Of a stretch of 64,000 nucleotides of DNA, positions 5,536-63,509 are shown in pieces; position 1 is the first letter of the stretch, and the number at the start of each line of letters is the position of its first letter. Under the pieces are notes generated by a model that worked only from the letters and a program-made list of their open reading frames with translations, did not search any database and was not told the origin of the DNA. Location of the stretch: NCBI GenBank assembly GCA_964373255.1, contig CAYJTG010000005.1:10638-74637 (forward strand), in the 5' to 3' direction. This DNA comes from an uncultured archaeon. GTDB lineage: Archaea; Aenigmatarchaeota; Aenigmatarchaeia; GW2011-AR5. The translations under genes were made by a program, and so were the position numbers.

Positions 5536-5685
5536 AGTAGATCAAGATAGATTTGTGTTCGCCCGCTTATATAGTGAAACCAGAATTAGGAGTCCAAGAA
5601 AATTATATGCTGATTGTTTTCTTGGGCGACTATAAATGCTTTTATATCCTTCTGTTACATTATTTTCTCTAAAGGTGTAAAATAA

Positions 5686-6942: not shown

Positions 6943-7866
6943 ATGGAAATAGAAACATTACGTGAAACAAAAGAAAGATTGATCATTCCACCTGTTAGTT
7001 CTATTTATCCAGCACTAGGCGTGGCTTACGAGAATGGAGGCTATGAAATAAATCACGCAGGCCTACTTGTAAGGACAGGCAAACATTATTATTATTCTAA
7101 AGCCGAAATCCCTGCGGGATTTCGCATGACAACGGCTGGCGAAGAGCTTGCAATCCAGATTCCATACGAAATAGTTGCAAAGATTCTTGAAAGAACTGAC
7201 GTAAAGGACGTATTGGCAGCCAAGAGCTATACTGATATCAAACAGATTCTTGAATCTTACGCAAAAACCACATCAGAAAAGTCCGCCATTCAATATGTCT
7301 TTGATGCGGAGTCGGAATCAATCCAGCAAACAATTGACGAAAAAGATAAATTGATCATAGACCCGAGAAAAGCCAAGGTCTTTGACGACCTTTTCGCAAG
7401 AGGACCTGACGAAATATACATGTGGCAGTGGACAGAAACGGGACTTCGAGTGCCAAAAGGAAGGGAAGCAGGCAAATACGAAACAGATGCCCAAGGCAGA
7501 AAGTATTGGGCCAGAATAGTTCTTGACGGCGATAAGGAAATCGGAGAAATTTTTGTTCCAGAAGGCGACAGTAGATTAGTTGCTGAATGGGACGAAGTTT
7601 TCGGTGTCCCACGAGTTACAATAGAAAACATGGGCTTTCCACACAAGCCTTATACTACTCACTTTTGGTTTAATGCGACTCCCAACTTAGACAGCACATC
7701 AGGACATTATGACGTTGCCGTCGAGCGCTGGGGCTACTGGCATCGCGATGTCGACGGGGGGTGCCTCGGCGTCGGGGCGAGCTACTGGCGCCTGACTGCG
7801 GGTTCGGCCGACGGCTTCCGCCTCGTTCGGGGGTCGCTACCTGAAATCATTAAAAAAGCAGCTTAA
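6943..7866 (+). CDS. Hypothetical protein with a GC-rich, Gly/Arg/Trp-rich C-terminal segment
   Basis: 307-aa ORF with no recognised motifs. Last ~45 codons (7720-7850) are ~68% GC against ~42% for the window. Confidence 0.3.
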   Translation: MEIETLRETKERLIIPPVSSIYPALGVAYENGGYEINHAGLLVRTGKHYYYSKAEIPAGFRMTTAGEELAIQIPYEIVAKILERTDVKDVLAAKSYTDIKQILESYAKTTSEKSAIQYVFDAESESIQQTIDEKDKLIIDPRKAKVFDDLFARGPDEIYMWQWTETGLRVPKGREAGKYETDAQGRKYWARIVLDGDKEIGEIFVPEGDSRLVAEWDEVFGVPRVTIENMGFPHKPYTTHFWFNATPNLDSTSGHYDVAVERWGYWHRDVDGGCLGVGASYWRLTAGSADGFRLVRGSLPEIIKKAA

Positions 7867-15751: not shown

Positions 15752-15761
15752 AACTATCCCT

Positions 15762-16046
15762 CTACATTAAGGAAACGAACAGATAGAAGTTGCAAAGCAA
15801 CTTCAGTTTGCTTTTCCTTATAATCTAGACTTATTATGAAGCAAGTAAATAACCTGAATATTATAACTTGCTTCATTTACATGGAGAATCGAAGATTCTC
15901 CTGTACAATTTCGAATTCCAGGAATTCGAATTGTAATTGAAAATCTGAAGGATTTTCAAATTACAGGTGAAGCGTAGCTTCACCATGTATAGCAAACAAG
16001 AAATATAATATCTGATTCTTTTCTTGTTTAGCTATAATCCCTTCCT
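15762..16046. mobile_element. Composite element in the L37ae-rpoP spacer: family-H element interrupted by a full-length (~203 bp) XY-type hairpin element
   Basis: H left part ctacattaaggaaa...tctagactta (15762-15833), XY insert ttatgaagcaag...gtttagctata (15834-16036), H right end atcccttcct (16037-16046). XY carries 5 hairpin modules. Confidence 0.6.
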
Positions 16047-16068
16047 AAAAGATTTCCAATATATAGAT

Positions 16069-18998: not shown

Positions 18999-19129
18999 GC
19001 TCTGTTGAAAACCTATGAAAAAGCATCGACGTAGACCCTTACGTCTTATCGACGTAAGGGTCAGCTAGAGCTATCATCGAGAGATGATAGCTCTCACGTC
19101 GATGCTTTTATTGAGCATTTCAACAGAGC
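18999..19129. mobile_element. Family-A MITE-like palindromic element, copy A1 (131 bp)
   Basis: Terminal inverted repeat gctctgttgaaa / tttcaacagagc, enclosing inverted repeat aaagcatcgacgt / acgtcgatgcttt, two perfect 12-bp hairpins (gacccttacgtc-ttatc-gacgtaagggtc; agagctatcatc-gaga-gatgatagctct). Confidence 0.75.
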
Positions 19130-21752: not shown

Positions 21753-22061
21753 TGGGCTTGGCAGGATTTGAACCTGCGTCACAAGCTCCCAATGAGCATC
21801 AAATTATAGCTCTACAAGGAAAGAAACAAGATACAAGAAAGAACGAAGTTCTTTCTGTACAGCAAGAGCAAAGCTCTTGCTTGTATTACTTCCTTGTGAG
21901 CTATATGTGAAACCGGAAAAACATGTCCGGATTCTTTTCTGGTTTCACTATAAGCTCGGATCATAGTCGTATGAGATGCGAAGCATCTCTATGCTCTAAC
22001 CAAATTGTCCCACCTTCCGCTTTGATGCAGCTTTCTGGAAAGGTGCCTAGACTACAAGCCC
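21753..22061 (-). tRNA. tRNA-like gene with about 235 nt of structured intervening sequence (candidate multi-intron tRNA; anticodon not resolved, loop ATTGGGA suggests Pro/UGG)
   Basis: Minus strand: 5' GGGCTTG-TA-GTCTAGG... and 3' ...GTGAC-GCAGG-TTCAAAT-CCTGC-CAAGCCC-A. 7-bp acceptor helix, canonical T arm, discriminator A. Interior has several perfect hairpins. Confidence 0.5.
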
Positions 22062-22524: not shown

Positions 22525-22655
22525 GCTCTGTAGAAATGCTCGATAAAGAGCATCGACGTAGACCTATACGTCTCTTGACGTATAGGTCAGCTAGAGATAT
22601 CATCGATAGATGATATCTCTCACGTCGATGCTCTTGCATAGGTTTTCTACAGAGC
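22525..22655. mobile_element. Family-A MITE-like element, diverged copy A4
   Basis: Same architecture as A1. Both internal hairpins carry compensatory substitutions that keep perfect pairing. Confidence 0.65.
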
Positions 22656-22707
22656 AAAATTACCTAATTATATACTATATATTCGGAAAGGATTAAGTCT
22701 GATTTCT

Positions 22708-22815
22708 CAGGAAGGGATTAAGTCTAGACACACAGAAAGCAAAGCTTTCTGGTGCACCAAAGAACCTTTGGTTCTTTGCGTGTTATAAGGGAAACCCAGG
22801 TTTCCCTTAATGTAG
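22708..22815 (-). repeat. Family-H hairpin-string element, copy H3 (reverse orientation)
   Basis: Reverse complement of the 51654-51761 element: cattaagggaaacccaggtttccctta / aaagaaccaaaggttcttt / cagaaagctttgctttctg / tctagacttaatcccttcctg. Confidence 0.6.
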
Positions 22816-22817
22816 AG

Positions 22818-23029
22818 TGGGCTCGCCCGGAATTTCACCGAAGCAGCATAATACTGCGATAGCCACCTAAGGATGGTAATGCCTTAGGAAGGATATCCTT
22901 CCTCGGCTTTGAACCGGGGTCTCATGCTTTTCAGTTTCTTTACTTGATTTTTCTGACTTTCTTGATTAAACTTCTTTTCAAAAGAAGTTTACCCTAAGCA
23001 CGGATCCTAACCAAACTAGACTACGAGCC
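22818..23029 (-). tRNA. Second tRNA-like gene with ~140 nt structured interior; 3' T-arm non-canonical (uncertain)
   Basis: Minus strand 5' GGGCTCG-TA-GTCTAGTTTGGTTAGGATCC... and 3' ...CGAGCCC-A (7-bp acceptor complement 212 nt apart). 5' 15 nt nearly identical to the 21753-22061 gene. Internal CCCGG-TTCAAAG-CCGAG T-arm-like segment. Interior has perfect hairpins (aaacttctttt-gaaa-agaagttt; gaaggatatccttc). Confidence 0.3.
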
Positions 23030-23069
23030 CATAAATTCTACATAGTTTATTAGATTTTTAAGGGGGTGA

Positions 23070-23212
23070 GACACTGTCAACTTAAGGGGTACATAATGGA
23101 ATCGAAGATTCCACTTGTACAGGTGAAGCTTTGCTTCACCATGTATTAGCTATCGCTAATACCCCAGAAAAGGCTGTTGCCTATAGGCAACAGCCGTTAA
23201 GTTGACAGTGCC
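23070..23212. mobile_element. Family-Z TIR element, copy Z1 (internal module replaced)
   Basis: TIRs cactgtcaacttaag / cttaagttgacagtg; internal ggctgttgcc-tatag-gcaacagcc hairpin. Central segment carries the ggaatcgaagattcc and caggtgaagctttgcttcacc modules seen at 15880-16000. Confidence 0.6.
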
Positions 23213-26079: not shown

Positions 26080-26121
26080 ATAATTAAATAAATTAAATAT
26101 TTGATTTTGGGAGGTAGTTGC

Positions 26122-29100
26122 ATGGCAAAAATAACAAAAGTTCGAAAAAGAGACGGAAGAATTGTAAATTTTGGCAAAGACAAGATAACAAACGCTATAT
26201 TCAAGGCCGTCCAGGCAGTAGGCGGGTCTGACAAAACTATAGCAGAAAGCCTTGCAAATCAGGTCATGGAAATTCTGGAAAAGAATATGCCACCGGGCGC
26301 TATTCCAAACATAGAGGATATACAGGATATTGTCGAGAGGGTTCTGATAGAATCCGGCCATGCAAAGACAGCAAAGGCCTACATACTTTACAGGAATGAG
26401 CACGCCAGAGTAAGGGAAGAGCAGAAAAGAATATTAGGCGGCAAAACAACAAAGCTCCCCTTCAGCATGAATGCCCTGCAGGTTCTTGCAAAGCGCTACC
26501 TTGTAAGAAACAGGGACGGTAATGTTATTGAATCGCCTGATGATATGTTCGAGAGGGTTGCTGATTCTTTGGCAAGCGTGGAGTACGAGTATGGAAAAAC
26601 AAACGAGGAAGTCGAAAAATTTTCCCAGCAGTTCAATGAAATCATGGCAAGTTTTGAGTTCATACCAGCTGGGCGCACAATGACAAACGCGGGCTCGCCG
26701 ACCCCTATAGTGCCTAATTGCATAGTCCTTCATATTGGCGACAACATGGATAACATATTTCAGACACTTAAAGAAGCCTCGCTTCTTCAGCAGGCAGGCT
26801 CTGGGTTGGGATTTCCGTTCCACCTGCTAAGGCCGGCCGGCACCGTTGCAAAGCGCTCCCGTGGGGTAGCCTCCGGTCCGGTCTCTTTCCTGCGCGTTTA
26901 CAATAATGCATTCGGCGTGATAAAACAGCAAAACAGGCACGGCGCGAACATGGGCGTTATGCGCGTCGACCATCCGGATATACTTGAATTCATACACGCA
27001 AAGGACGTCGAGGGCGAGATAAGGAACTTCAACATCTCCGTTGCAATTACAGATGAATTCATGCAGAAGGCACGCGACAACGATTCAACGCCTTGGATAT
27101 GCGAGTGGAACGGCGAAAAGATGAAGCCAAGGCGCGTTTACAGGGATTCAAACGGCATTGTTCTCGACATCAAGGAGGAGACAATGACGGCAAAAGAAAT
27201 CTTCATGGAAATTGTGTCGTCGGCATGGCAGACCGGCGAACCTGGAATAATCTTCATCGACAAAATAAATGATACAAATCCGTTGCCCGGTCTTGGTCGA
27301 ATAGAGGCGTGTAATCCTTGTGTGACCGGCGATACATTAGTAAGCACGGAACACGGAATGATGAAAATATCTGATTTGGCAGAGAAACATGGAAAAGGTG
27401 GCGTATCTGTAATTTGTGACAATAGGATGCCTATAACAATATATGAATCTGATGGAACCAAAGTCCTGATATACAAAGGCACAAAAGGCACACAAATCAA
27501 TAACGTGAGTGCTGCATGGAAATCTGGCTTCAAAGATGTATTGAAAATTGAAACAGAATCGGGGTACGAGCTTGAAGCCACAGCAGATCATAAGATAATG
27601 ACAACAAAAGGATGGATAGATGTCGAAAACCTTACAAAAGAACACGAAATTCTTATTCAATCAGGAGAAGGAAGATTCTCTGTAAACAACCAAATTCCAT
27701 TTGAAGTGCAGAATGAATTTATTGGAGAAAATGGCAGAACTTATAAATATAATTTTCCTCGTCAATGGAACAGGGAATTGGGGCAACTTCTTGGCTGGAT
27801 CGTAGGTGATGGCTGGATAAGAGACAAGGAAAAGGAGTGCGATAAAGAAATAATGACACATATAAAGTCGATAGGAAACATGATTTATGGCTCTGAAAAA
27901 CGAGAAATTGAAAGAATAAGAAATACACACCATCTCAATTATGGTTCACGACGCTTTGTAGAATACCTTATGAAGCTTGGGCTCAAGACAACAGGCGCAG
28001 AAAATAAAGAAGTACCAAAGAGCATTTTCACAGCACCAAAAGACGCTGTATCAGGCTTCCTTCAAGGTTTGTTTTCATCAGATGGCACAGTAATGCTAGA
28101 CGAAAAACATGGCAACTATTATATAAGATTGACAACGAAATCGATAAAACTTGCAAAACAGGTTCAGACACTTCTTCTGAACTTCGGAATTAAGTCAAGA
28201 ATATACGACAGGAGCAGGCCGCCAAAAAAGAACCTATTTACGTATGAAACAAAATCAGGAGAAAAAAGAACTTATGCATCTGACGGAATTCTGTTTGAAG
28301 TGCATGTACATGGCGATACAATAATAAAATTTAATGAACAAATAGGATTTCTATGCAGTAAAAATAAAGAGAAAATAGAAAAGATACTGAAAAAGAATCT
28401 AAGAGACGATAAATTTACAGACAAAGTAAAATATGTCGAGTACATTGGCAAGAAAGATGTCTACGATCTCACAGAACCAGCGACGCACTCTTTCATAGCA
28501 AATGGTATTGTGGTATCAAATTGTGGTGAGCAATTTCTCCACGACGGCGATGTCTGCAATCTTGGTTCGATAAATCTGGAAAAATTTGTAAAAGATGGCA
28601 AAATAGATTTTGATCGATTAAGGCATGTCACACGTTTAGCTGTGCGTATGCTTGACAACGTTGTCGATATCACAGCAGCGCCTGCCGACCGTGTCAATCA
28701 CATGTTCCGCGCAAACCGCAGGGTCGGTTTGGGCATAATGGGCTTTGCGGATATGCTCTATCAACTGAAGATAGGTTATAATGCAGAAGAGGGCGCAAAG
28801 ACAGCAGAAAAGGTCATGAACTGCATTCAAGAATCTGCCCACCAAATGTCGCAAGAGCTTGCTGAGGAGAAAGGCGTGTTTCCAAACTGGGAGAAGAGCG
28901 TATTTGCAAAGAAAGGTATAAAGATGCGAAACGCCGCGCTCACAAACATCGCCCCGACAGGAACTATATCCATGGTCTTCGACGTTTCCGGGGGCGTAGA
29001 ACCTTATTTTGCCTTGGCTTACCACTACCAGGGAATTCTGGGGGGCGCAACCCAGCTCTACTACGTCAACAAGCACCTGAGAAAGACACTGGAAGAGTAT

Positions 29101-29589
29101 GGTTTATACAACGATGTAATAATGAAGCGCATATTTGAGGAAGGAACGCTGCAGCGTATAGAAGAAATCCCTGATGATTTGAAGCGTGTGTTTGTCACGG
29201 CCATGGATATTTCATCCGACGACCACATACGGGTGCAGGCGGCTTTCCAGAAATACGTTGACAACAGCATATCAAAGACGTGCAACTTCCCTGAGGACGC
29301 TACAAAAGAGGACGTCTTTCAGGGATATCTGCTCGCCTGGCAGCTCGGCTGCAAGAGCTGCACCGTGTACAGAAACAACTCACGCAGGCTGCAAGTGCTG
29401 AATCTTAACAAGCAGAAACAGGAGGAAGTTCAGGAAGAGGAGTACGAGCCGCAGCAGCAGAAGATAGCGGTCGCAGCCACAAACGGTTCTACACATTACA
29501 CGACGTGTCCAGAGTGTGACACCGTGCTGGAGCAAAAAGAAGGGTGTTCTTCTTGCCCTCAGTGCGGCTGGGGATTGTGCAGCGTGTAA
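26122..29589 (+). CDS. nrdJ: Class II (B12-dependent) ribonucleotide reductase NrdJ, with N-terminal ATP cone, one intein, and C-terminal Zn ribbon
   Basis: ATP cone [21 protein letters not shown]. Catalytic motif NP|CGEQ split by the intein. C-terminal CPECD...CPQCG. GGAGGT 7 nt upstream of ATG 26122. Extein ~760 aa. Confidence 0.85.
27319..28521 (+). mobile_element. Intein (401 aa) with LAGLIDADG homing-endonuclease domain, inserted before the catalytic Cys of the RNR NPCGE motif
   Basis: N-extein ...EACNP | [11 protein letters not shown] (Cys1, block A) ... [11 protein letters not shown] and [12 protein letters not shown] (two LAGLIDADG-type motifs) ... IANGIVVSN | CGEQF (terminal Asn, +1 Cys). 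Confidence 0.8.
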
Positions 29590-34980: not shown

Positions 34981-35167
34981 GCTCTGTAGAAAACCTATGC
35001 AAGAGCATCGACGTGAGAGCTATTATCTTCTAAGATAACAAAGTTATCTTGAAGATTCAGGTTGACTTTGTCAACCATGAATCTGTCGATAATAGCTCTA
35101 GCTGACCTATACGTCAAGAGACGTATAGGTCTACGTCGATGCTCTTTATCGTGCATTTCTACAGAGC
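34981..35167. mobile_element. Family-A MITE-like element, copy A5 with inverted core plus a 70-bp insert
   Basis: Same TIRs and cgtcgatgc inverted repeats as A1. Internal hairpin pair is in reverse-complement order relative to A1/A2/A3. Also carries an extra insert ttctaagataacaaagttatcttgaa... Confidence 0.65.
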
Positions 35168-35220
35168 TTTACATAGGAAATCTCATCAACTTTTTATAAA
35201 AGGCACTACAATAGATTTCT

Positions 35221-39120: not shown

Positions 39121-39912
39121 GTGGTTGCTATAGATACCACATATTTAAGGCTTACGAACCAGATAATTTTCATGAAGACAGAAAACGAGGAAATTTTGCA
39201 GATGCTGGATTTAACAGAGATCGAGAGTAAGACTTATCTGACATTGCTAGATATAGGAACGTCTAAAGCAGGTACTATAAGCAATCGCGCGCATATTCAT
39301 AGAAGAAATACTTATGACGCTCTGGAAAATTTATTACAGAAGGGGCTTGTCACGTCATTTGTTTCTAACAATCAAAAATTTTGGGCTGCTGTAAACCCAA
39401 AGAAATTATACCTCTTATTAAAAGAAAAAGAATACGCCATATCGAAAATAATGCCAGAGTTAATTTCTAACTTCAATTCCAATAAAGGCAAACAAATTGT
39501 AGAAGTATTTGAAGGTCTTGGGGGTATGAAAACATTTTTTGATGACATGGCTAACTCAAAGAAGGATGTGTACATGCTTTTTGCTACGGGGAGAGCTTAT
39601 TTGAGAATGAAATTGTACATGGAAAGCTGGGATAAAAGAATAAACAATTCAGGAATTAAAGTTAGAGTTCTTTTAAATTCGGATGCAATCAAAGAACCTT
39701 ATCAAAATTATAAATATGGTGAAATTAAAATTTTGCAGAATACATTTTCACCTACGCAGATATTCATTTATGGCAATAAAACAGCTATTGCCATATGGTC
39801 GGATGAACCGATAGCTGCCTTAATTACAAGCAATGAAATTACTAAAGGATTTAAAAAATATTTCGGTTTTCTTTGGAAATTTGGCAAAAGAGTTCATTAT
39901 AATAAAATCTAA
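39121..39912 (+). CDS. TrmB-family transcriptional regulator (wHTH + C-terminal TrmB domain)
   Basis: N-terminal LTEIESKTYLTLLDIGTSKAGTISNRAHIHRRNTYDALENLLQKGLV is TrmB-type wHTH. Paralogue of 57093-57911. Confidence 0.6.
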   Translation: MVAIDTTYLRLTNQIIFMKTENEEILQMLDLTEIESKTYLTLLDIGTSKAGTISNRAHIHRRNTYDALENLLQKGLVTSFVSNNQKFWAAVNPKKLYLLLKEKEYAISKIMPELISNFNSNKGKQIVEVFEGLGGMKTFFDDMANSKKDVYMLFATGRAYLRMKLYMESWDKRINNSGIKVRVLLNSDAIKEPYQNYKYGEIKILQNTFSPTQIFIYGNKTAIAIWSDEPIAALITSNEITKGFKKYFGFLWKFGKRVHYNKI

Positions 39913-40097
39913 GGAGATACAGGCATAGTCATGCAAGGAAATAATCAGTATATAATTATACCCTTGCTGACTATATGTGAAACCAGTCATAGCATGTCCA
40001 GATTATTTACTGGTTTCACTATAAACCGCATTACAAACATCTTTATACAACATAGTTCTAACTTCTAACAGAAAACGATAAAAAATTATGAAAATGA

Positions 40098-42448: not shown

Positions 42449-42616
42449 ACTACATTAAGGGAAAAGAACAGATAGAAGTTGCTTCGCAACTTCAGTTTGT
42501 CTTTCCCTTAAAATGCTCAAAGAACCGAAGGTTCTTTGACATCTGCAAAGAAGCATAGCTTCTTTGAGATTCCGAAAAGCTTTGCTTTCTGAGCATCTAG
42601 ACTTAATCCTTTCCTG
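42449..42616 (+). repeat. Family-H hairpin-string element, copy H1, abutting the gltX stop codon
   Basis: ctacattaagggaaa[...gaagttgc-ttcg-gcaacttc...]tttccctta / aaagaaccgaaggttcttt / ...tctagacttaatcctttcctg. Confidence 0.6.
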
Positions 42617-42794
42617 AATATTTTCTCATAAACTTCCCTATAATCAGCAGATCTTCACCTTTTGCAAAATGGCTTTTCAGTTTTCCTTCTTTGAAATCTC
42701 CATATTCCTTGAAAAACGGAAAATATTGTAGAAATAGAATAGTAATTACAAATAGTACAAAATATTCTTATACTACCTAAAACCAGTATTAATC

Positions 42795-43667
42795 ATGTCG
42801 GTCGAACTAGGCATTCTCTTCGCATTAGCAGCCCTGATTTTCTGGGGTTTCGGCGATTTTCTTATTCAGAGATCAACAAGAAAATTCGGAGACTGGGAAA
42901 CATTATTTATTATTACAACATTTGGTGCAGTCATCCTAACGCCGTTTGTTTACAACGACCCGCAATTTGCACTTTTGTTCGACGACAAAACATTTCTTAT
43001 GTTCATAGGTATATCTGTAGTTCTCCTGATCGCAGCCATTCTGGATTTCGAAGCACTCAAAAAAGGCAAGATCGCGGTTGTCGAACCTATTTATGCCCTT
43101 GAGGTCCCGATATCCGCTATTTTAGCACTTATGATAATTAACGAGTCGATAGAATTTCTGCAGATAATTGTCCTATCGATACTTGTAATAGGCTTGATCA
43201 TGATTTCGCTGAAGTCCCATCATTTTTCAAGGAGGGCATGGGTCGAGAAAGGTGTTGTTCTTGCGGTCATCGCCACAATTTTTATGGGTTCTGTTAATTT
43301 CCTTATAGGGTTTGCGTCAAGGATCACAAATCCGCTTTTGGCCAACTGGTTTGTTGACGTGTTTCTGGCGGTAATCAGCCTGTTTTACATCATGTCGAAT
43401 AAAAGATTCTCTAAACTGTTGAGCGATTTCAAAGGCAACAAACAACTCATCCTGGCTGTAAGTACTTTTGACAATCTCGCCTGGATTGCCTTCGCAATTG
43501 CGACGACCTTTATACCGATTGTAATTGCACTCGGATTTTCAGAAAGTTATATAGCGCTTGCTGCCCTTCTCGGCTTCTTAATAAACAAGGAGAGGCTTAT
43601 GAAGCATCAAAAAATCGGCCTTGTTATCGTACTATTAAGTGCTTCTGCCCTCGCACTTATAATATGA
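42795..43667 (+). CDS. EamA/DMT-superfamily transporter (10 TM)
   Basis: Two EamA-like halves of 5 hydrophobic helices each. 290 aa. Confidence 0.6.
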   Translation: MSVELGILFALAALIFWGFGDFLIQRSTRKFGDWETLFIITTFGAVILTPFVYNDPQFALLFDDKTFLMFIGISVVLLIAAILDFEALKKGKIAVVEPIYALEVPISAILALMIINESIEFLQIIVLSILVIGLIMISLKSHHFSRRAWVEKGVVLAVIATIFMGSVNFLIGFASRITNPLLANWFVDVFLAVISLFYIMSNKRFSKLLSDFKGNKQLILAVSTFDNLAWIAFAIATTFIPIVIALGFSESYIALAALLGFLINKERLMKHQKIGLVIVLLSASALALII

Positions 43668-43727
43668 TCCAAATAAATAATCAGGATACTAAATTTGGAT
43701 CACAGTAGTTCATTAATAATGACAATC

Positions 43728-44782: not shown

Positions 44783-45823
44783 TCATTTTTTCACCTTTTC
44801 CAGATTAGTCAAGCGCAAACCGACAAGACGTATTTTCTTCTTTGAGTTCTGAAAGTGTGATAACAAATCATCAGCAGCATTTTTAACGTCGTCTATCGTT
44901 ATGTCACTGTTTTTTAACGATTTCTGTTTTGTGTGCGTTTCAAAATCCCCGAACCTTATCTTCAGCACAACTGTTTTGAATGTGTAGCCAGCGTTTGTTG
45001 CTGTTTCATATATTTCTTTTGCTGTATCATCTAAGACGACCTTTATTAAATTAAAATCGCCTGTATCCTTTTCAAAAGTAACCTCTCTGCCGATTGACTT
45101 GCTCTCCACGTGCTCAACAATATCGCTGTTGTCAATGCCATGAGCGTAGTGGTACATTACCAGTCCGGATTTGCCAAATATTTCCTTCAGCCTGTTCTGG
45201 TCGTAATTAGCAATATCGCCTATTGTTTTTATTCCTATGCTATTCAAAACAGCTTCTGTTTTTGGGCCGACCCCGTATAGCTTTCTTGCAGATAGCGGAT
45301 GAAGAAAATCTTCTACGTCTTCTGGTCTTACGACAGTAAGACCGTCTGGCTTTTTGAAGTCGCTTGCAATTTTCGCAATCAATTTATTGGGGCCTACGCC
45401 TATGGAACACGTAAGCCGCTCTTTTTGTAGGATTTCTTTTTTTATTTTCTTCGCCAGCAGCTCTGCGTCTTCATAGGTTCTTACTTTTTTTGGTATCAGA
45501 AACGCCTCGTCTATTCCTGCCAATTGAAATTTTTCTGCATATTTTTTGGCAATATTCATGACACCTTCAGAGACCCTCCAGTAGAGCTCGAAATTTACGG
45601 GAAGAAATACCGCTTGAGGGCACAGTCTGTATGCCTTTGAAATCGGCATACCTGAACGCACACCAAATTCTCTGGCCCTGTAATTGCACGTCGAAACAAC
45701 CCCGCGGCCTTTTCCTTGCTTCGGGTCTGCTCCCACGACAACAGGCTTGCTCTTTATTTCCGGTCTTTCTCGCTCTTCAACAGCCGAGAAGAAGGCGTCC
45801 ATGTCAATGTGAAAGACTATCAT
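44783..45823 (-). CDS. dinB: Y-family DNA polymerase IV (DinB/Dpo4)
   Basis: MIVFHIDMDAFFSAVEER...SIDEAFLD-like motifs (GIDEAFL), little-finger domain. 346 aa. Confidence 0.85.
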   Translation of the reverse strand: MIVFHIDMDAFFSAVEERERPEIKSKPVVVGADPKQGKGRGVVSTCNYRAREFGVRSGMPISKAYRLCPQAVFLPVNFELYWRVSEGVMNIAKKYAEKFQLAGIDEAFLIPKKVRTYEDAELLAKKIKKEILQKERLTCSIGVGPNKLIAKIASDFKKPDGLTVVRPEDVEDFLHPLSARKLYGVGPKTEAVLNSIGIKTIGDIANYDQNRLKEIFGKSGLVMYHYAHGIDNSDIVEHVESKSIGREVTFEKDTGDFNLIKVVLDDTAKEIYETATNAGYTFKTVVLKIRFGDFETHTKQKSLKNSDITIDDVKNAADDLLSHFQNSKKKIRLVGLRLTNLEKVKK

Positions 45824-45861
45824 AAAGTTAAGATAAGAAGGAAATTATTAAAAATCAGCTA

Positions 45862-46161
45862 TTAGGACACTTTTGTAATCACTATGTCATTAGAGTGCTT
45901 TAGTCTTATTTTTTCCTCATCAACATCTGACATAGATCTGTTTAAAGTTATGCGTATTTTTTTACTAGAATTGTTATGGCTTGTAATAGGATAAACCAAA
46001 TGAACGTGATACCCTTGTTCTTTAATCGTACTTAATAAAAAATCAGGGTCGTACCCATTATTTAATTGGAATATATATACTGGTTTACCTTTGTATACGC
46101 GCTCGTCAAGTGTTGTACGCATTGCAAAAAGGGTCCATAGCAGTTCAGAAGTATAGCCCAT
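45862..46161 (-). CDS. Hypothetical protein, 99 aa
   Basis: No motif recognised. Confidence 0.25.
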   Translation of the reverse strand: MGYTSELLWTLFAMRTTLDERVYKGKPVYIFQLNNGYDPDFLLSTIKEQGYHVHLVYPITSHNNSSKKIRITLNRSMSDVDEEKIRLKHSNDIVITKVS

Positions 46162-46192
46162 TAAATTCTGATGATTTCTATCTTTTTAAGCC

Positions 46193-46606
46193 TTACCTAT
46201 ATTTGCAGGGATCAGCAAAGTAGTTTATCTCTGCGCACTTGTTGCCGCTGCACGCGTATCTTTTGTACGATGACCCGTCTGGGCATTTGCCTGTTTGACA
46301 ATGAGAATCGTCATAACATTCGACCGTCGAGCCGGAAAGCCCGTCTTGCTGTTCTGCGCCACAGACCCAGCCGCACCTTTTCTGCTCGCACACCCAGTTG
46401 CCTGTACAGAGTATGTGGACAAGGTCTTGATTTTCACAGTCTTGGGGAACGTTGCAAAAGCCTATATTTGTATCATTTTTTGTATTATTTGACGTATAGT
46501 TCTTTTTTGCTGAAAGGTCTTTGTAGATATTGACAGAAGCAAAAGCAACGATCAAAAGCACTATTATAACTATATACAAAATCATCTTGCCATCAAATAG
46601 GCTCAT
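46193..46606 (-). CDS. Membrane-anchored Cys-rich protein (1 TM + 14-Cys ectodomain)
   Basis: ILYIVIIVLLIVAFASV TM helix then CNVPQDCENQD...CTGNWVCEQKRCGWVCG...CQTGKCPDG. Same architecture as 19272-19760. Confidence 0.3.
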   Translation of the reverse strand: MSLFDGKMILYIVIIVLLIVAFASVNIYKDLSAKKNYTSNNTKNDTNIGFCNVPQDCENQDLVHILCTGNWVCEQKRCGWVCGAEQQDGLSGSTVECYDDSHCQTGKCPDGSSYKRYACSGNKCAEINYFADPCKYR

Positions 46607-46650
46607 GATTGTGATGTGTAAACCAAATCTTAAATACGTAAAAAACTAGA

Positions 46651-46846
46651 GCACTGTCAACTTATTATGAAGCAAGTAAATAATCTGGATATTATAGCAA
46701 ACAAGAAATATAATACCTGATTCTTTTCTTGTTTAGCTATAAGGGTGGTTAGCCATTGCTAACCACCCAGAAAAGGCTGTTGCCAAAGCAGATAGACGCA
46801 CTTTAGTGCGTCAGTTTGTTTCAACAGCCGCTAAGTTGACAGTGCC
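46651..46846. mobile_element. Family-Z TIR element, copy Z2, with two nested insertions
   Basis: TIRs gcactgtcaactta / taagttgacagtgcc. A 79-bp XY-type element (ttatgaagcaagtaaataatctg...gtttagctata) inserted after caactta. A second hairpin module (agatagacgcactttagtgcgtcagtttgtttc) lies inside the ggctgttgcc...aacagcc loop. Confidence 0.6.
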
Positions 46847-48910: not shown

Positions 48911-49041
48911 GCTCTGTTGAAAACCTATGAAAAAGCATCGACGTAGACCCTTACGTCTTATCGACGTAAGGGTCAGCTAGAGCTATTGTCAAAAGACAAT
49001 AGCTCTCACGTCGATGCTTTTATTGAGCATTTCAACAGAGC
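48911..49041. mobile_element. Family-A MITE-like element, copy A2, filling the S24e-S27ae spacer
   Basis: Identical TIRs and outer stems to A1. Second hairpin carries compensatory change (ctattgtc-aaaa-gacaatag versus ctatcatc-gaga-gatgatag). Confidence 0.75.
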
Positions 49042-50976: not shown

Positions 50977-51087
50977 AATACATCCCTTTTCTTAAGACTG
51001 ATAGACGCATCGAAGATGCGTCAGTTTGTTTAAGGTCTGTATCAATCCCAAAAGAACATGGGATCTTTCAGACCTTCAATTTCAATA

Positions 51088-51642: not shown

Positions 51643-51653
51643 TCTAAATCACT

Positions 51654-51761
51654 CTACATTAAGGGAAACCCAGGTTTCCCTTATAACACGCAAAGAACCA
51701 AAGGTTCTTTGGTGCACCAGAAAGCTTTGCTTTCTGTGTGTCTAGACTTAATCCCTTCCTG
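51654..51761 (+). repeat. Family-H hairpin-string element, copy H2, immediately upstream of rpoE
   Basis: cattaagggaaacccaggtttccctta / aaagaaccaaaggttcttt / cagaaagctttgctttctg / tctagacttaatcccttcctg. Confidence 0.6.
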
Positions 51762-52016
51762 AAATTTTTGCTTAAGCTTTTTTAAAAAAGCTTACTAGAC
51801 TTGCCTTCCCTCACTTGCCTGTTTGTTCTCATGAGTAGTTAGAAATTTTAAAATCATGAAGAACATATCTTTCTTGAGAGTAAGAGGTTTTAAAGCTTTC
51901 TTTCATCGGTATTGAAAAATTAACATTCCACCATTTTTCTACAGTATCTCCGAAAGTTGGATTACTGCCTCTTTGCAGTAATCCTCTACCGAGGTATATG
52001 CCACAAGGCGTATACC

Positions 52017-52307: not shown

Positions 52308-52546
52308 CGAATAAACCCGATTCCAACTATCATAGAAAACTTTTTAAAGACGTTTCTGTTTTTTGTTCTGTATGTTAAGTTAATGTGATCCAAATAAATA
52401 ATCGTGATACTAAATTTGGATCACAGTACATAGCGAAACAAAGTTTCGCTTGTACAGGTAAAGCTTTGCTTTACCATGTACTGTGCACAAGGAATGTAAT
52501 ATACCGATTCATTCCTTGTAGCACATTAAAAGAAAACAGAGCCCGT

Positions 52547-55977: not shown

Positions 55978-56263
55978 TCTTCAACACCTTCTATTTTTTA
56001 TTAGGGCGATACATAAGTCGGTCTAGTTGTTTGTTGATTGAGCAAAGACCGTCTTTCGTATTCAATACCCCTTTATATTTTCGTTAGAAACAGGACCTCA
56101 ATGAAGCTCTAGTAAAAGCGAAAAATCGCCCCGACTTCTTAACTAAAGCCAAAAACCCTGAATTCCGGGTTCCTTCTGCCTTACTTCCCTTCACTTACTT
56201 CCTTTCCCTAACAGTACTAATTATTGATAAAAGATAAGTATTTAAAAAGGATAAATCGGAGGG

Positions 56264-56351
56264 GCACTGTCAACTTAAGGGTGGTTAGCTGTTGCTAACC
56301 ACCCAGAAAAGGCTGTTGCCGATAGGCAACAGCCGTTAAGTTGACAGTGCC
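56264..56351. mobile_element. Family-Z TIR element, compact canonical copy Z3 (88 bp)
   Basis: ggcactgtcaacttaag / gggtggttagc-tgtt-gctaaccaccc / agaaaa / ggctgttgcc-gatag-gcaacagcc / gttaagttgacagtgcc. Two perfect hairpins inside perfect 16-bp TIRs. Confidence 0.7.
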
Positions 56352-57092: not shown

Positions 57093-57911
57093 TCAATCGT
57101 TCTTTGTAGAAGCAATCTTCCATAGATGTTCAAAATGATTTCTGTACGTATCGGCAATTTTCTTGTTCTGTATCATTATCGCAGTTGGAGGAGTATCCCA
57201 TGAAACAACGACAATTTTATCGCCATATACGAATGTATTTGTTGGATTGAATTCATCACCATCAAGAAATCTGTATGTAGTTGTTGATGCAGTTTTTTTA
57301 TCAAACAAGAATATACGTTTCTTTTTGATTGTTATTACACGTTCTCGGATATTATTATGCTTCAAATTTCTGAAGTGCTGTTTCATAAATAATTGAAGAT
57401 TTTCATTGTATTTTTCGTCGTCTATCCCTGTTATAAGGACTTCTTTTTTTGTTTTTACTATATCTTTCAGAAAATACTTTATACCCTCGATGCTTTTGAA
57501 AACTTCGACCCTTGTATCTTCTCTGGGTAGCTTTGTCATAGCTTCCAATTCAGGCAATATTTTTTCAATTTCATTCTCTTGAAATTCCAATTCTTTCTTT
57601 TTCTCTTCTAGATAATGTTTTATTTTAACTGGCGGAGTCGCTTGAAAATATTTTTTGGCATCTTTGTATATGTGTGTAACAAGGCCTTTTTTCATTAACT
57701 GTTCCAATTTATCATAAACATGTACACGGTATATACCTGTTTTCTGGCCTATTTCGTACGCTGTAATAGGACCGGATTTCAACAAAATTATGTATACGTT
57801 GACCTCATTTTCTGTGAGTCCTATTTTTTTCAATATTGATGTTTCCATAGTTATTACTCTATCACTATTGCTTAAATATCTATATATTTTCGTACTATAA
57901 TAGTACGACAT
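57093..57911 (-). CDS. TrmB-family transcriptional regulator (paralogue of 39121-39912)
   Basis: LTENEVNVYIILLKSGPITAYEIGQKTGIYRVHVYDKLEQLMKKGLV wHTH; C-terminal block aligns with the 39121 protein. Confidence 0.6.
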   Translation of the reverse strand: MSYYYSTKIYRYLSNSDRVITMETSILKKIGLTENEVNVYIILLKSGPITAYEIGQKTGIYRVHVYDKLEQLMKKGLVTHIYKDAKKYFQATPPVKIKHYLEEKKKELEFQENEIEKILPELEAMTKLPREDTRVEVFKSIEGIKYFLKDIVKTKKEVLITGIDDEKYNENLQLFMKQHFRNLKHNNIRERVITIKKKRIFLFDKKTASTTTYRFLDGDEFNPTNTFVYGDKIVVVSWDTPPTAIMIQNKKIADTYRNHFEHLWKIASTKND

Positions 57912-61722: not shown

Positions 61723-62553
61723 GTGGATATGGTTGCAAGCAATAAGACACTGGATATGCTGAAAACAATCGGCTTGAATAAGTACGAACGCAATTTGTGG
61801 ACAGCGCTTCTTTCTAGAGGTGCGTCTACAGCCGGAGAATTAAGTGATATTTCCAACGTTCCTCGTTCTAGATGCTACGACGTGTTAGAGTCATTGGCAA
61901 CAAAAGGCTTCATTGTAATACAGCCTGGAAAGCCGATAAAATACGTTGCCATGAACCCTAAGGAGGCTTTGGAGCGCGTCAAAAAGAAGATTCGTGAAGA
62001 CGCGGTTGAGACAACGGAAAAGATCGAGCGATTCCTTAAGAGCGACTCGATAAGGGAGCTTGAAAGGCTGCACAAGGAAAATATGAAGGTCATGAACCCT
62101 GAGGACCTTACGGGCGCACTGAAGGGCAGGTACGCCATGCACCAGCAGGTTGAGACGATGCTGAAAAATGCAAAGAAATCCGTGAAGCTTCTTACCACAG
62201 ACCGCGGCCTGAAAGAATTGCTCGATACCCACGGTCCTTTGCTAAAGAGGGTTTCCAATTCTGGCGTGAAAATCCAGATCGCTGCGCCCGTCAGAAAGGA
62301 TGCATTAGATACTGTAAAAGAGCTGGCACAGTACGCGCAGGTAAGAAATATCAGTGATGTTGAGATGGTTGAAAAATTTGCAGGGCGACTTTTCGTTGTT
62401 GACGGCCAGGAATTCGTGCTTGGCCTGACAGACGACACAAAAATACACCCGACACAGGATGTGGCTTTGTGGACGCAGAGCTCGCACGCATCTTCTTCGG
62501 TTTTCGAGCCCATGTTTGAGCTCGTCTGGCATCATGCTAAGCCCGTTAAGTGA
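61723..62553 (+). CDS. TrmB-family transcriptional regulator (third copy)
   Basis: LNKYERNLWTALLSRGASTAGELSDISNVPRSRCYDVLESLATKGFI wHTH plus TrmB C-terminal domain. 276 aa. Confidence 0.6.
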   Translation: MDMVASNKTLDMLKTIGLNKYERNLWTALLSRGASTAGELSDISNVPRSRCYDVLESLATKGFIVIQPGKPIKYVAMNPKEALERVKKKIREDAVETTEKIERFLKSDSIRELERLHKENMKVMNPEDLTGALKGRYAMHQQVETMLKNAKKSVKLLTTDRGLKELLDTHGPLLKRVSNSGVKIQIAAPVRKDALDTVKELAQYAQVRNISDVEMVEKFAGRLFVVDGQEFVLGLTDDTKIHPTQDVALWTQSSHASSSVFEPMFELVWHHAKPVK

Positions 62554-63377: not shown

Positions 63378-63509
63378 GCTCTGTTGAAAACCTATGAAAA
63401 AGCATCGACGTAGACCCTTACGTCTTATCTACGTAAGGGTCAGCTAGAGCTATCATCAACAGACGATAGCTCTCACGTCGATGCTTTTTGTTGAGCATTT
63501 CTACAGAGC
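63378..63509. mobile_element. Family-A MITE-like element, copy A3
   Basis: Near-identical to A1 over the first 75 bp; right hairpin variant (ctatcatc-aaca-gacgatag); right TIR tttctacagagc. Confidence 0.75.

Follow-up and report, generated by a model that had tools for sequence, protein, structure and literature searches.

Hairpin-ended, TA-flanked MITEs nested in two unrelated repeats of a groundwater Aenigmarchaeote

Closest described systems

Correia elements of Neisseria are intergenic sequences of about 100–150 bp with inverted repeats and a TA target duplication, which occur in size variants formed by internal deletion and whose transposase was long unknown. Insertion of MITEs into other MITEs is well known in plants, and among archaea Sulfolobus SM1/ISC1048 may be an IS630-type MITE, on which nothing below relies. 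The genomes of DPANN archaea are small and streamlined, and nearly all knowledge of these organisms comes from metagenomes. The stretch of DNA analyzed here, called the window (64,000 nt), is from a groundwater Candidatus Aenigmarchaeota (DPANN); its housekeeping genes are archaeal (FttA, Kae1, prefoldin, L37ae, RpoP, MCM, proteasome, ProRS, ribonucleotide reductase). Its Kae1 is the same protein as that encoded by a 96-kb NCBI contig, and the relatives of Kae1 that carry a name belong to Candidatus Aenigmarchaeota. The window contains several copies of a short repeat, XY, which adds a new family to a well-known kind, the TA-duplicating MITE, and is no new kind of system.

Like the MITEs derived from IS630/Tc1-mariner elements (plant Stowaway-type, E. 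coli MITEEc1), XY is small and non-coding, has terminal inverted repeats, is present in many copies, strictly targets TA, is bordered by TA on both sides and is nested in other repeats. It differs from them in that its terminal repeats of ~48 nt are hairpins with covarying stems and a conserved loop, in the variable tips following the TA, in its strong preference for TTAA, and in that neither the 64-kb window nor the related loci (about 110 kb) yielded a matching transposase or an autonomous copy with matching ends. Correia elements agree with XY in size range, TA duplication, internal-deletion variants and intergenic location, but they are bacterial and their terminal repeats are not self-complementary hairpins; to our knowledge, they contain no nested series of mini-hairpins. 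In cyanobacteria (Nostoc), small dispersed repeats (SDR) of 21–27 nt have reportedly been described by Elhai and colleagues (in Genome Research, in 2008), their mechanism being unknown. As with the mini-hairpins reported below, these are very small repeated modules nested inside other hairpin repeats; however, sequences and host domain are different, and the archaeal modules are palindromic, TA-bounded and mostly located within XY-type elements. The likeness to REP/REPIN-RAYT systems (PMC3116915, PMC2817692), i.e., inverted pairs of short extragenic palindromes with a conserved hairpin, is a resemblance only; those systems are known from bacteria, produce no TA duplication and are defined by a RAYT gene.

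For DPANN archaea, an automated census recorded high MITE loads in Ca. Altiarchaeum and a Woesearchaeon (PMC11602168). These are likewise small, symbiont-like archaeal genomes dense in MITEs, and our window carries seven XY-type elements and two other MITE families within 64 kb. However, the census gives counts only, and the XY family, its TA/TTAA specificity and its hairpin-repeat architecture were absent from it in a full-text search. A full-text search of the literature returned no description of the XY family or of MITEs in Aenigmarchaeota. Unusual features of XY are the hairpin terminal repeats with conserved loops and compensatory stems, the TTAA context and the nested series of mini-hairpins.

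Junctions, empty sites and target context

According to the first-pass annotation, one and the same XY element sits in two unrelated hosts, copy Z2 of repeat family Z and copy H4 of family H. Both pairs of junctions are exact in the window (Table 1; a slash marks the junction): cactgtcaactta/ttatgaagcaag...gtttagctata/agggtgg in Z2, with ...caactta/ at the left, and ...tctagactta/ttatgaagcaag...gtttagctata/atccc in H4. The 19-mer of the X terminus and the 23-mer of the Y terminus each occur twice in the window, against chance expectations of 0.08 and 0.00, respectively, and the two copies are identical at 74 of their 77 common nucleotides. Both are intergenic, the H4 copy lying between the genes for L37ae and RpoP. 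While the start at 46665 and the length of 203 nt in H4 were given correctly, the end of the Z2 copy had been set at 46743 (79 nt); by the annotation's own definition of the element (ttatg...gctata) it is 46741 (77 nt).

Empty sites are provided by paralogous host copies. The Z-type site reads caacTTAAgggtgg (caacTTAAggg) in Z3 and Z1, and the H-type site reads tctagacTTAAtcc in H2, H3 and H1. Since these five copies read CTTAAG or CTTAAT, a filled site differs from its empty counterpart by exactly the element and one additional TA. The TA duplication proposed earlier thus agrees with the paralogous sites of both hosts, which have one TA when empty and two when filled. An orthologous XY-free site was not found; contigs of four other samples either break within XY or carry the element. 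Because the target is always TA, a duplicated TA and TA-like ends of the element itself look the same in sequence; we infer that the TA is duplicated rather than carried along. The host-XY junctions are reproduced in independent Logan short-read assemblies from four sequencing runs. Four Logan contigs stop within the X terminus, right after ...gtcaactta/ttatgaagcaagtaaa, and one stops within the Y terminus, beside ...gctata/atccc, as expected of a multicopy repeat.

Table 1. Coordinates of XY-type elements, empty sites and host repeats in the window
Feature	Coordinates	Strand	Description
XY-type element	5568-5634	+	X 5′ arm only, plus Y hairpin with different stems
XY copy in H4	15834-16036	+	203 nt, full copy; 15832-16036 with left flanking TA
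Parts of XY in H4	15832-15879; 15878-15989; 15988-16036		X hairpin; four TA-bounded mini-hairpins; Y hairpin
XY-type element	21805-21952	+	146 nt between TAs; X loop holds two mini-hairpins; inside tRNA-like gene
XY-type element, minimal	39926-40023	+	X and Y hairpins meet at common TA
Solo terminal hairpin	43660-43707	+	TA-bounded; gives upstream EamA gene its stop codon
XY copy in Z2	46665-46741	+	77 nt; 46663-46741 with both flanking TA (46663-64, 46740-41)
Parts of XY in Z2	46665-46696; 46693-46741		X 5′ arm and loop; fused to complete Y hairpin
XY-type element	52381-52528	+	146 nt: X, two mini-hairpins, Y; different stems
Z1 empty site	23082-23085		TTAA; no XY
Z3 empty site	56275-56278		TTAA; uninterrupted host
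H1 empty site	22712-22729	-	TTAA 22718-22721
H2 empty site	42595-42612	+	TTAA 42603-42606
H3 empty site	51741-51756		TTAA 51748-51751
Z1	23070-23212		No XY; mini-hairpin pair 23094-23145 in stem
Z2 host	46650-46846		85-nt palindromic MITE, ends AGCACTG...CAGTGCC; interrupted by XY and by module 46785-46821
Z2 direct repeats (8 bp)	46642-49; 46847-54		AAAACTAG; AAAATTAG; 7/8 match
Z3	56263-56351		Uninterrupted; perfect 8-bp direct repeat ATCGGAGG (8/8)
H1	22700-22815	-	Family H copy
H2	42450-42625		Family H copy
H3	51650-51770		Family H copy
H4	15760-15833; 16037-16060		Family H copy, on both sides of XY

Besides the copies in Z2 and H4, the covariance model described below recovered five more XY-type elements in the window and 13 in metagenome contigs. 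All are short (65–203 nt) and without an ORF, and the family is multicopy and non-coding. The TA borders noted at the two nested copies recur throughout: TA was found at all 38 outer ends examined (17 two-ended elements and four single ends). Next to this TA, the outside base is T (left ends) or A (right ends) in 31 of the 38 cases (binomial P about 2e-11), with T-TA as left flank in 13/17 elements and A as downstream base at 18/21 right ends. A full TTAA context is shared by 12 of 17 elements, compared to only about 6.5% of the TA sites in the window. The target of XY is a symmetric T/TA/A, in line with the empty sites CTTAAG and CTTAAT.

Metagenome contigs were scanned for exact matches to the Y terminus. 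Of the eight loci obtained, seven belong to JGI sample Ga0213870 and one to Hainich groundwater; every copy is bordered by TA on either side, and the loci are at unrelated positions alongside ordinary genes. The minimal element of the window (Table 1) is assembled through identically in two other samples. A syntenic contig of another Aenigmarchaeote (L029; 77% Kae1 identity) carries three pairs and one solo hairpin, at sites which differ from those in the window. In contrast, 35 kb from a relative whose Kae1 is 78% identical contain no XY-type element, not even in the syntenic spacer between PPase and ORF. The element at 52381 is located between the gene for the H+-PPase and an ORF of 96 aa; the matching syntenic spacer in relative L024 has 108 nt and no such element. 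The mobility that had been suggested from the two nested copies is supported by insertion into numerous unrelated loci in three or more lineages of Aenigmarchaeota, together with absence from a fourth, syntenic relative. Searching representative genomes, a collection outside which the source genome lies, with the X terminus gave chance matches only, in unrelated bacteria. Matches to viral contigs in two scans were weak and attributable to chance. In one of them, at 7587-7608 of locus L036, 22 nt of an 86-kb IMG/VR viral contig agree exactly with the Y 3′ arm plus the flanking A; it was set aside as unrelated, since an 18-tRNA array lies alongside (ARAGORN), a hairpin is missing and none of the proteins resembles those of the window.

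Several observations concern the surroundings of the elements. The solo hairpin occupies a 27-nt gap between two genes, and the TGA stop codon of the EamA-family gene (43665-43667) is within the hairpin. Three paralogous TrmB-family regulator genes are found within 23 kb (39121-39912, 57093-57911, 61723-62553), one of which ends 14 nt ahead of an XY-type element. Between Kae1 and Sua5 there is a three-gene block (44783-46606) of a 137-aa ORF, a 99-aa ORF and a Y-family DNA polymerase, with the Z2/XY cluster at its edge; two relatives have Kae1 and Sua5 side by side or one small ORF apart. The ribonucleotide reductase large subunit (26101-29589) contains an intein with a LAGLIDADG homing-endonuclease domain. 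On the minus strand, two tRNA-like genes (21753-22061 and 22817-23030) have good acceptor stems, a T-arm and very large internal insertions, and one H copy begins directly after the 3′ end of the one at 22817. ARAGORN found no tRNA in the window at default settings; the two tRNA-like genes were called at a relaxed threshold, or at default after deletion of about 236 or about 122 nt. They may be multi-intron tRNAs or pseudogenes.

Terminal hairpins, mini-hairpins and host repeats

X and Y are one hairpin of ~48 nt in opposite orientations, X forward and Y reverse: in nearly all of 35 pairings tried, X fits the reverse complement of Y better than Y itself. Consequently, XY is a MITE in which each terminal inverted repeat forms a hairpin of its own. 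An alignment of 13–14 hairpins gave a common plan of outer TA, 10–14-bp stem, loop, complementary arm and inner TA. The loop is conserved and asymmetric (about AAATAATCTGGATAT), the stem differs from copy to copy, and the tips directly after the TA are variable (TT/TA/AT/GT). A covariance model, R1, was built from this alignment. It detected 26 strong hairpins in the window and the related loci L011–L018, and further ones in L029. Scores were about 45–67 bits in one orientation and about 14–28 bits in the other, so that the polarity of the hairpin is clear. All complete X-Y pairs are arranged -> <- (15/15) and none <- ->. Single-strand folding gave z-scores of -12.5 for the H4 copy of XY and -11.5 for repeat Z2. 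In the stem, 6 of 11 pairs changed on both sides, and the observed covariation score was attained in 0 of 500 shuffles. No Rfam family was detected in the window at the gathering threshold.

Lengths between the flanking TAs cluster at 93–96, 146 and 203 nt, and the classes differ by nested pairs of TA-bounded mini-hairpins of 24–30 nt. In the shortest class (about 94 nt), X and Y are joined directly at a common central TA. The 146-nt class has two additional 24-nt mini-hairpins, TA-CATGG...CCTG-TA-CAGG...CCATG-TA, and the 203-nt class, represented by H4, has two more. In H4 and in a truncated copy in locus L018, this extra pair is inserted at the TA between the first two, and copies with 0, 2 and 4 mini-hairpins can be aligned as a nested series in which each joint has a TA. 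Two pairs are placed elsewhere, one (21832-21885) in the X loop of the element at 21805 and one, without XY, at a TA inside the Z1 stem; the complementary arm GCTAATACCCC indicates that the original Z1 arm had a single TA. The Z2 copy lacks 124 nt, comprising the X 3′ arm and four mini-hairpins, with repeated TATA at both breakpoints. Judged by its sequence, it is a TA-to-TA deletion derivative, and the first-pass annotation was therefore right to describe it as an internal-deletion derivative keeping both termini. The loss is similar in the element at 5568.

The host repeats have structures of their own. Family Z is a MITE as well, an 85-nt palindrome with an outer stem and two inner hairpins. 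At its ends, GGCACTGT, it matches the IS26 end over the first 8 nt, and these IS26-like ends together with the 8-bp direct repeats suggest that Z is derived from the IS6 family. The second insert in Z2, in the loop of the second hairpin, is a module ..cagataGACGCACtttaGTGCGTCagtttg.., the type of which is also found with different stems at 15771-15817, 42460-42506 and about 50996-51030. Family H, starting ..ctacattaaggg.., is modular: its hairpin content varies, and entire hairpin modules distinguish one copy from another. A further, third MITE family (about 130 nt) is present at 18999-19129, 22525-22655, 48911-49041 and 63378-63509, with a partial copy near 35104-35170. Structurally, this family combines the outer inverted repeat GCTCTGTTGAAA...TTTCAACAGAGC with a second stem and, inside, two hairpins of 12 bp; direct repeats of 8–10 bp, e.g., TTTGTTCC and TTTTTATT, flank it.

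Mobilization of XY and alternative explanations

XY is probably a non-autonomous, TA-integrating MITE of this Aenigmarchaeota lineage that is moved in trans by a DDE enzyme. It would integrate at TA, preferably within TTAA, leaving TA on both sides, and a cut-and-paste DDE transposase with a 2-bp staggered cut would yield such flanks. Due to the TA specificity, an enzyme of the IS630/Tc1-mariner type is the first and most likely candidate, which would act in trans and be encoded outside the window. Some IS5-group and IS30-type enzymes also give 2-bp duplications; thus, the IS630/Tc1 assignment is not exclusive. IS630-family transposases do occur in archaea (PMC13343696, PMC3718332). Pfam scans detected no transposase of any family among about 50 ORFs of the window, and among 20 ORFs of the related loci L011–L018 none except an IS6-family gene in L018. 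As no transposase was found, we infer the IS630/Tc1-mariner type from the target.

The IS6-family transposase gene (L018, 355-1080; about 32% identity to Clostridium IS6 transposases) is located 170 nt from an XY copy on the Hainich groundwater contig. It was rejected as the partner of XY because its family makes 8-bp duplications, whereas XY has 2-bp TA flanks; GGCACTG ends were not found around the gene. For the same reason, XY is no IS6-family MITE (8-bp duplication, GG(C/T)NCTGT ends). A piggyBac-like duplication of TTAA was rejected as well, since the sequence inside the TA is not A/T-constrained, so that the two ends do not each repeat the TTAA.

Mobilization through a DDE enzyme leaves the covarying stems unexplained, because a transposase binding double-stranded inverted repeats does not require them. 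They leave room for a hairpin-dependent process, possibly including modules of 24–50 nt that are mobile alone. Such a process would insert hairpins specifically at TA without a classical transposase reaction, with modules of about 24–50 nt of which XY is the largest. We regard this as unlikely. TA-bounded pairs of mini-hairpins with 24-nt bodies are indeed found in three contexts (X-Y joint, X loop, Z1 stem), in H4 and L018 a further pair is inserted at the central TA of the first, and no transposase was detected. However, most mini-hairpins reside within XY-type elements and could belong to the interior of a 146-nt master copy, from which TA-to-TA deletion sometimes removes them; only two placements are outside the X-Y junction. 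Moreover, the CA...TG tips next to TA are what would be expected of a Tc1-like DDE substrate. There is a small chance that the window records a process recognizing hairpins or cruciforms and TA instead of long double-stranded ends, which moved and stacked palindromes of ~24–50 nt at earlier central TAs and reached the tRNA-like genes.

Movement of a single-stranded hairpin by an HUH/Y1 enzyme, either IS200/IS605-derived or REP/REPIN-RAYT-like, appears quite unlikely. XY would then insert beside TTA without duplication, and the terminal TA would belong to the element. Hairpins with conserved loops and covarying stems at both ends suggest that the structure itself is recognized, inverted hairpin pairs look like REPIN doublets (PMC3116915), no IS family is more widespread in archaea than IS200/IS605 (PMC13343696), T-TA precedes most elements, and a DDE partner was not found. 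On the other hand, elements derived from IS200/IS605 have subterminal hairpins in the same orientation and no inverted repeats, and XY is the opposite in both respects: with inverted end hairpins, a single transferred strand would show different loops at its two ends. Further, IS200/IS605-type insertion occurs 3′ of a fixed target of 4–5 nt and leaves the downstream position unconstrained, in contrast to the symmetric T/TA/A bias and the prevailing downstream A of XY. Y1_Tnp (Y1/RAYT) matched no ORF scanned in the window or the related loci. An IS200/IS605-type reading was, therefore, rejected as the main model on account of the inverted hairpins and the symmetric target context.

Spread without any transposition, by recombination, gene conversion or microhomology-mediated joining at TA or TATA between modular palindromes, is improbable. 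The breakpoints of the Z2 deletion in repeated TATA, and a genome full of modular palindromes with short joints in common, would fit. Nevertheless, Z and H resemble each other around the site in ACTTAA only, and such joining does not predict at least 17 insertions with the same boundaries and TTAA context in mostly unique, unrelated flanks. Although short-read assemblies do break at these repeats, mis-joining of repeats in a metagenome-assembled contig has a negligible probability and is ruled out as the source of these junctions by their presence in the independent assemblies of four runs and by the identical minimal element in two other samples.

Mobilization in trans by a DDE enzyme is thus retained as the main model, and XY points to an as-yet-unseen transposase, which may come from the host or from a mobile element. 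If it is true that hairpin repeats and mini-hairpins reflect a mechanism and not history, this would bear on the spread of very small palindromic repeats in general. A process recognizing hairpins and TA, which we think rather unlikely, would, if true, give the cyanobacterial “very small mobile repeats” an archaeal counterpart, at work in a reduced DPANN genome without an obvious transposase. Further, XY-type MITEs account for the fragmented short-read assemblies of such DPANN genomes, and a recently active MITE family in DPANN archaea is a marker of strain and lineage relationships.
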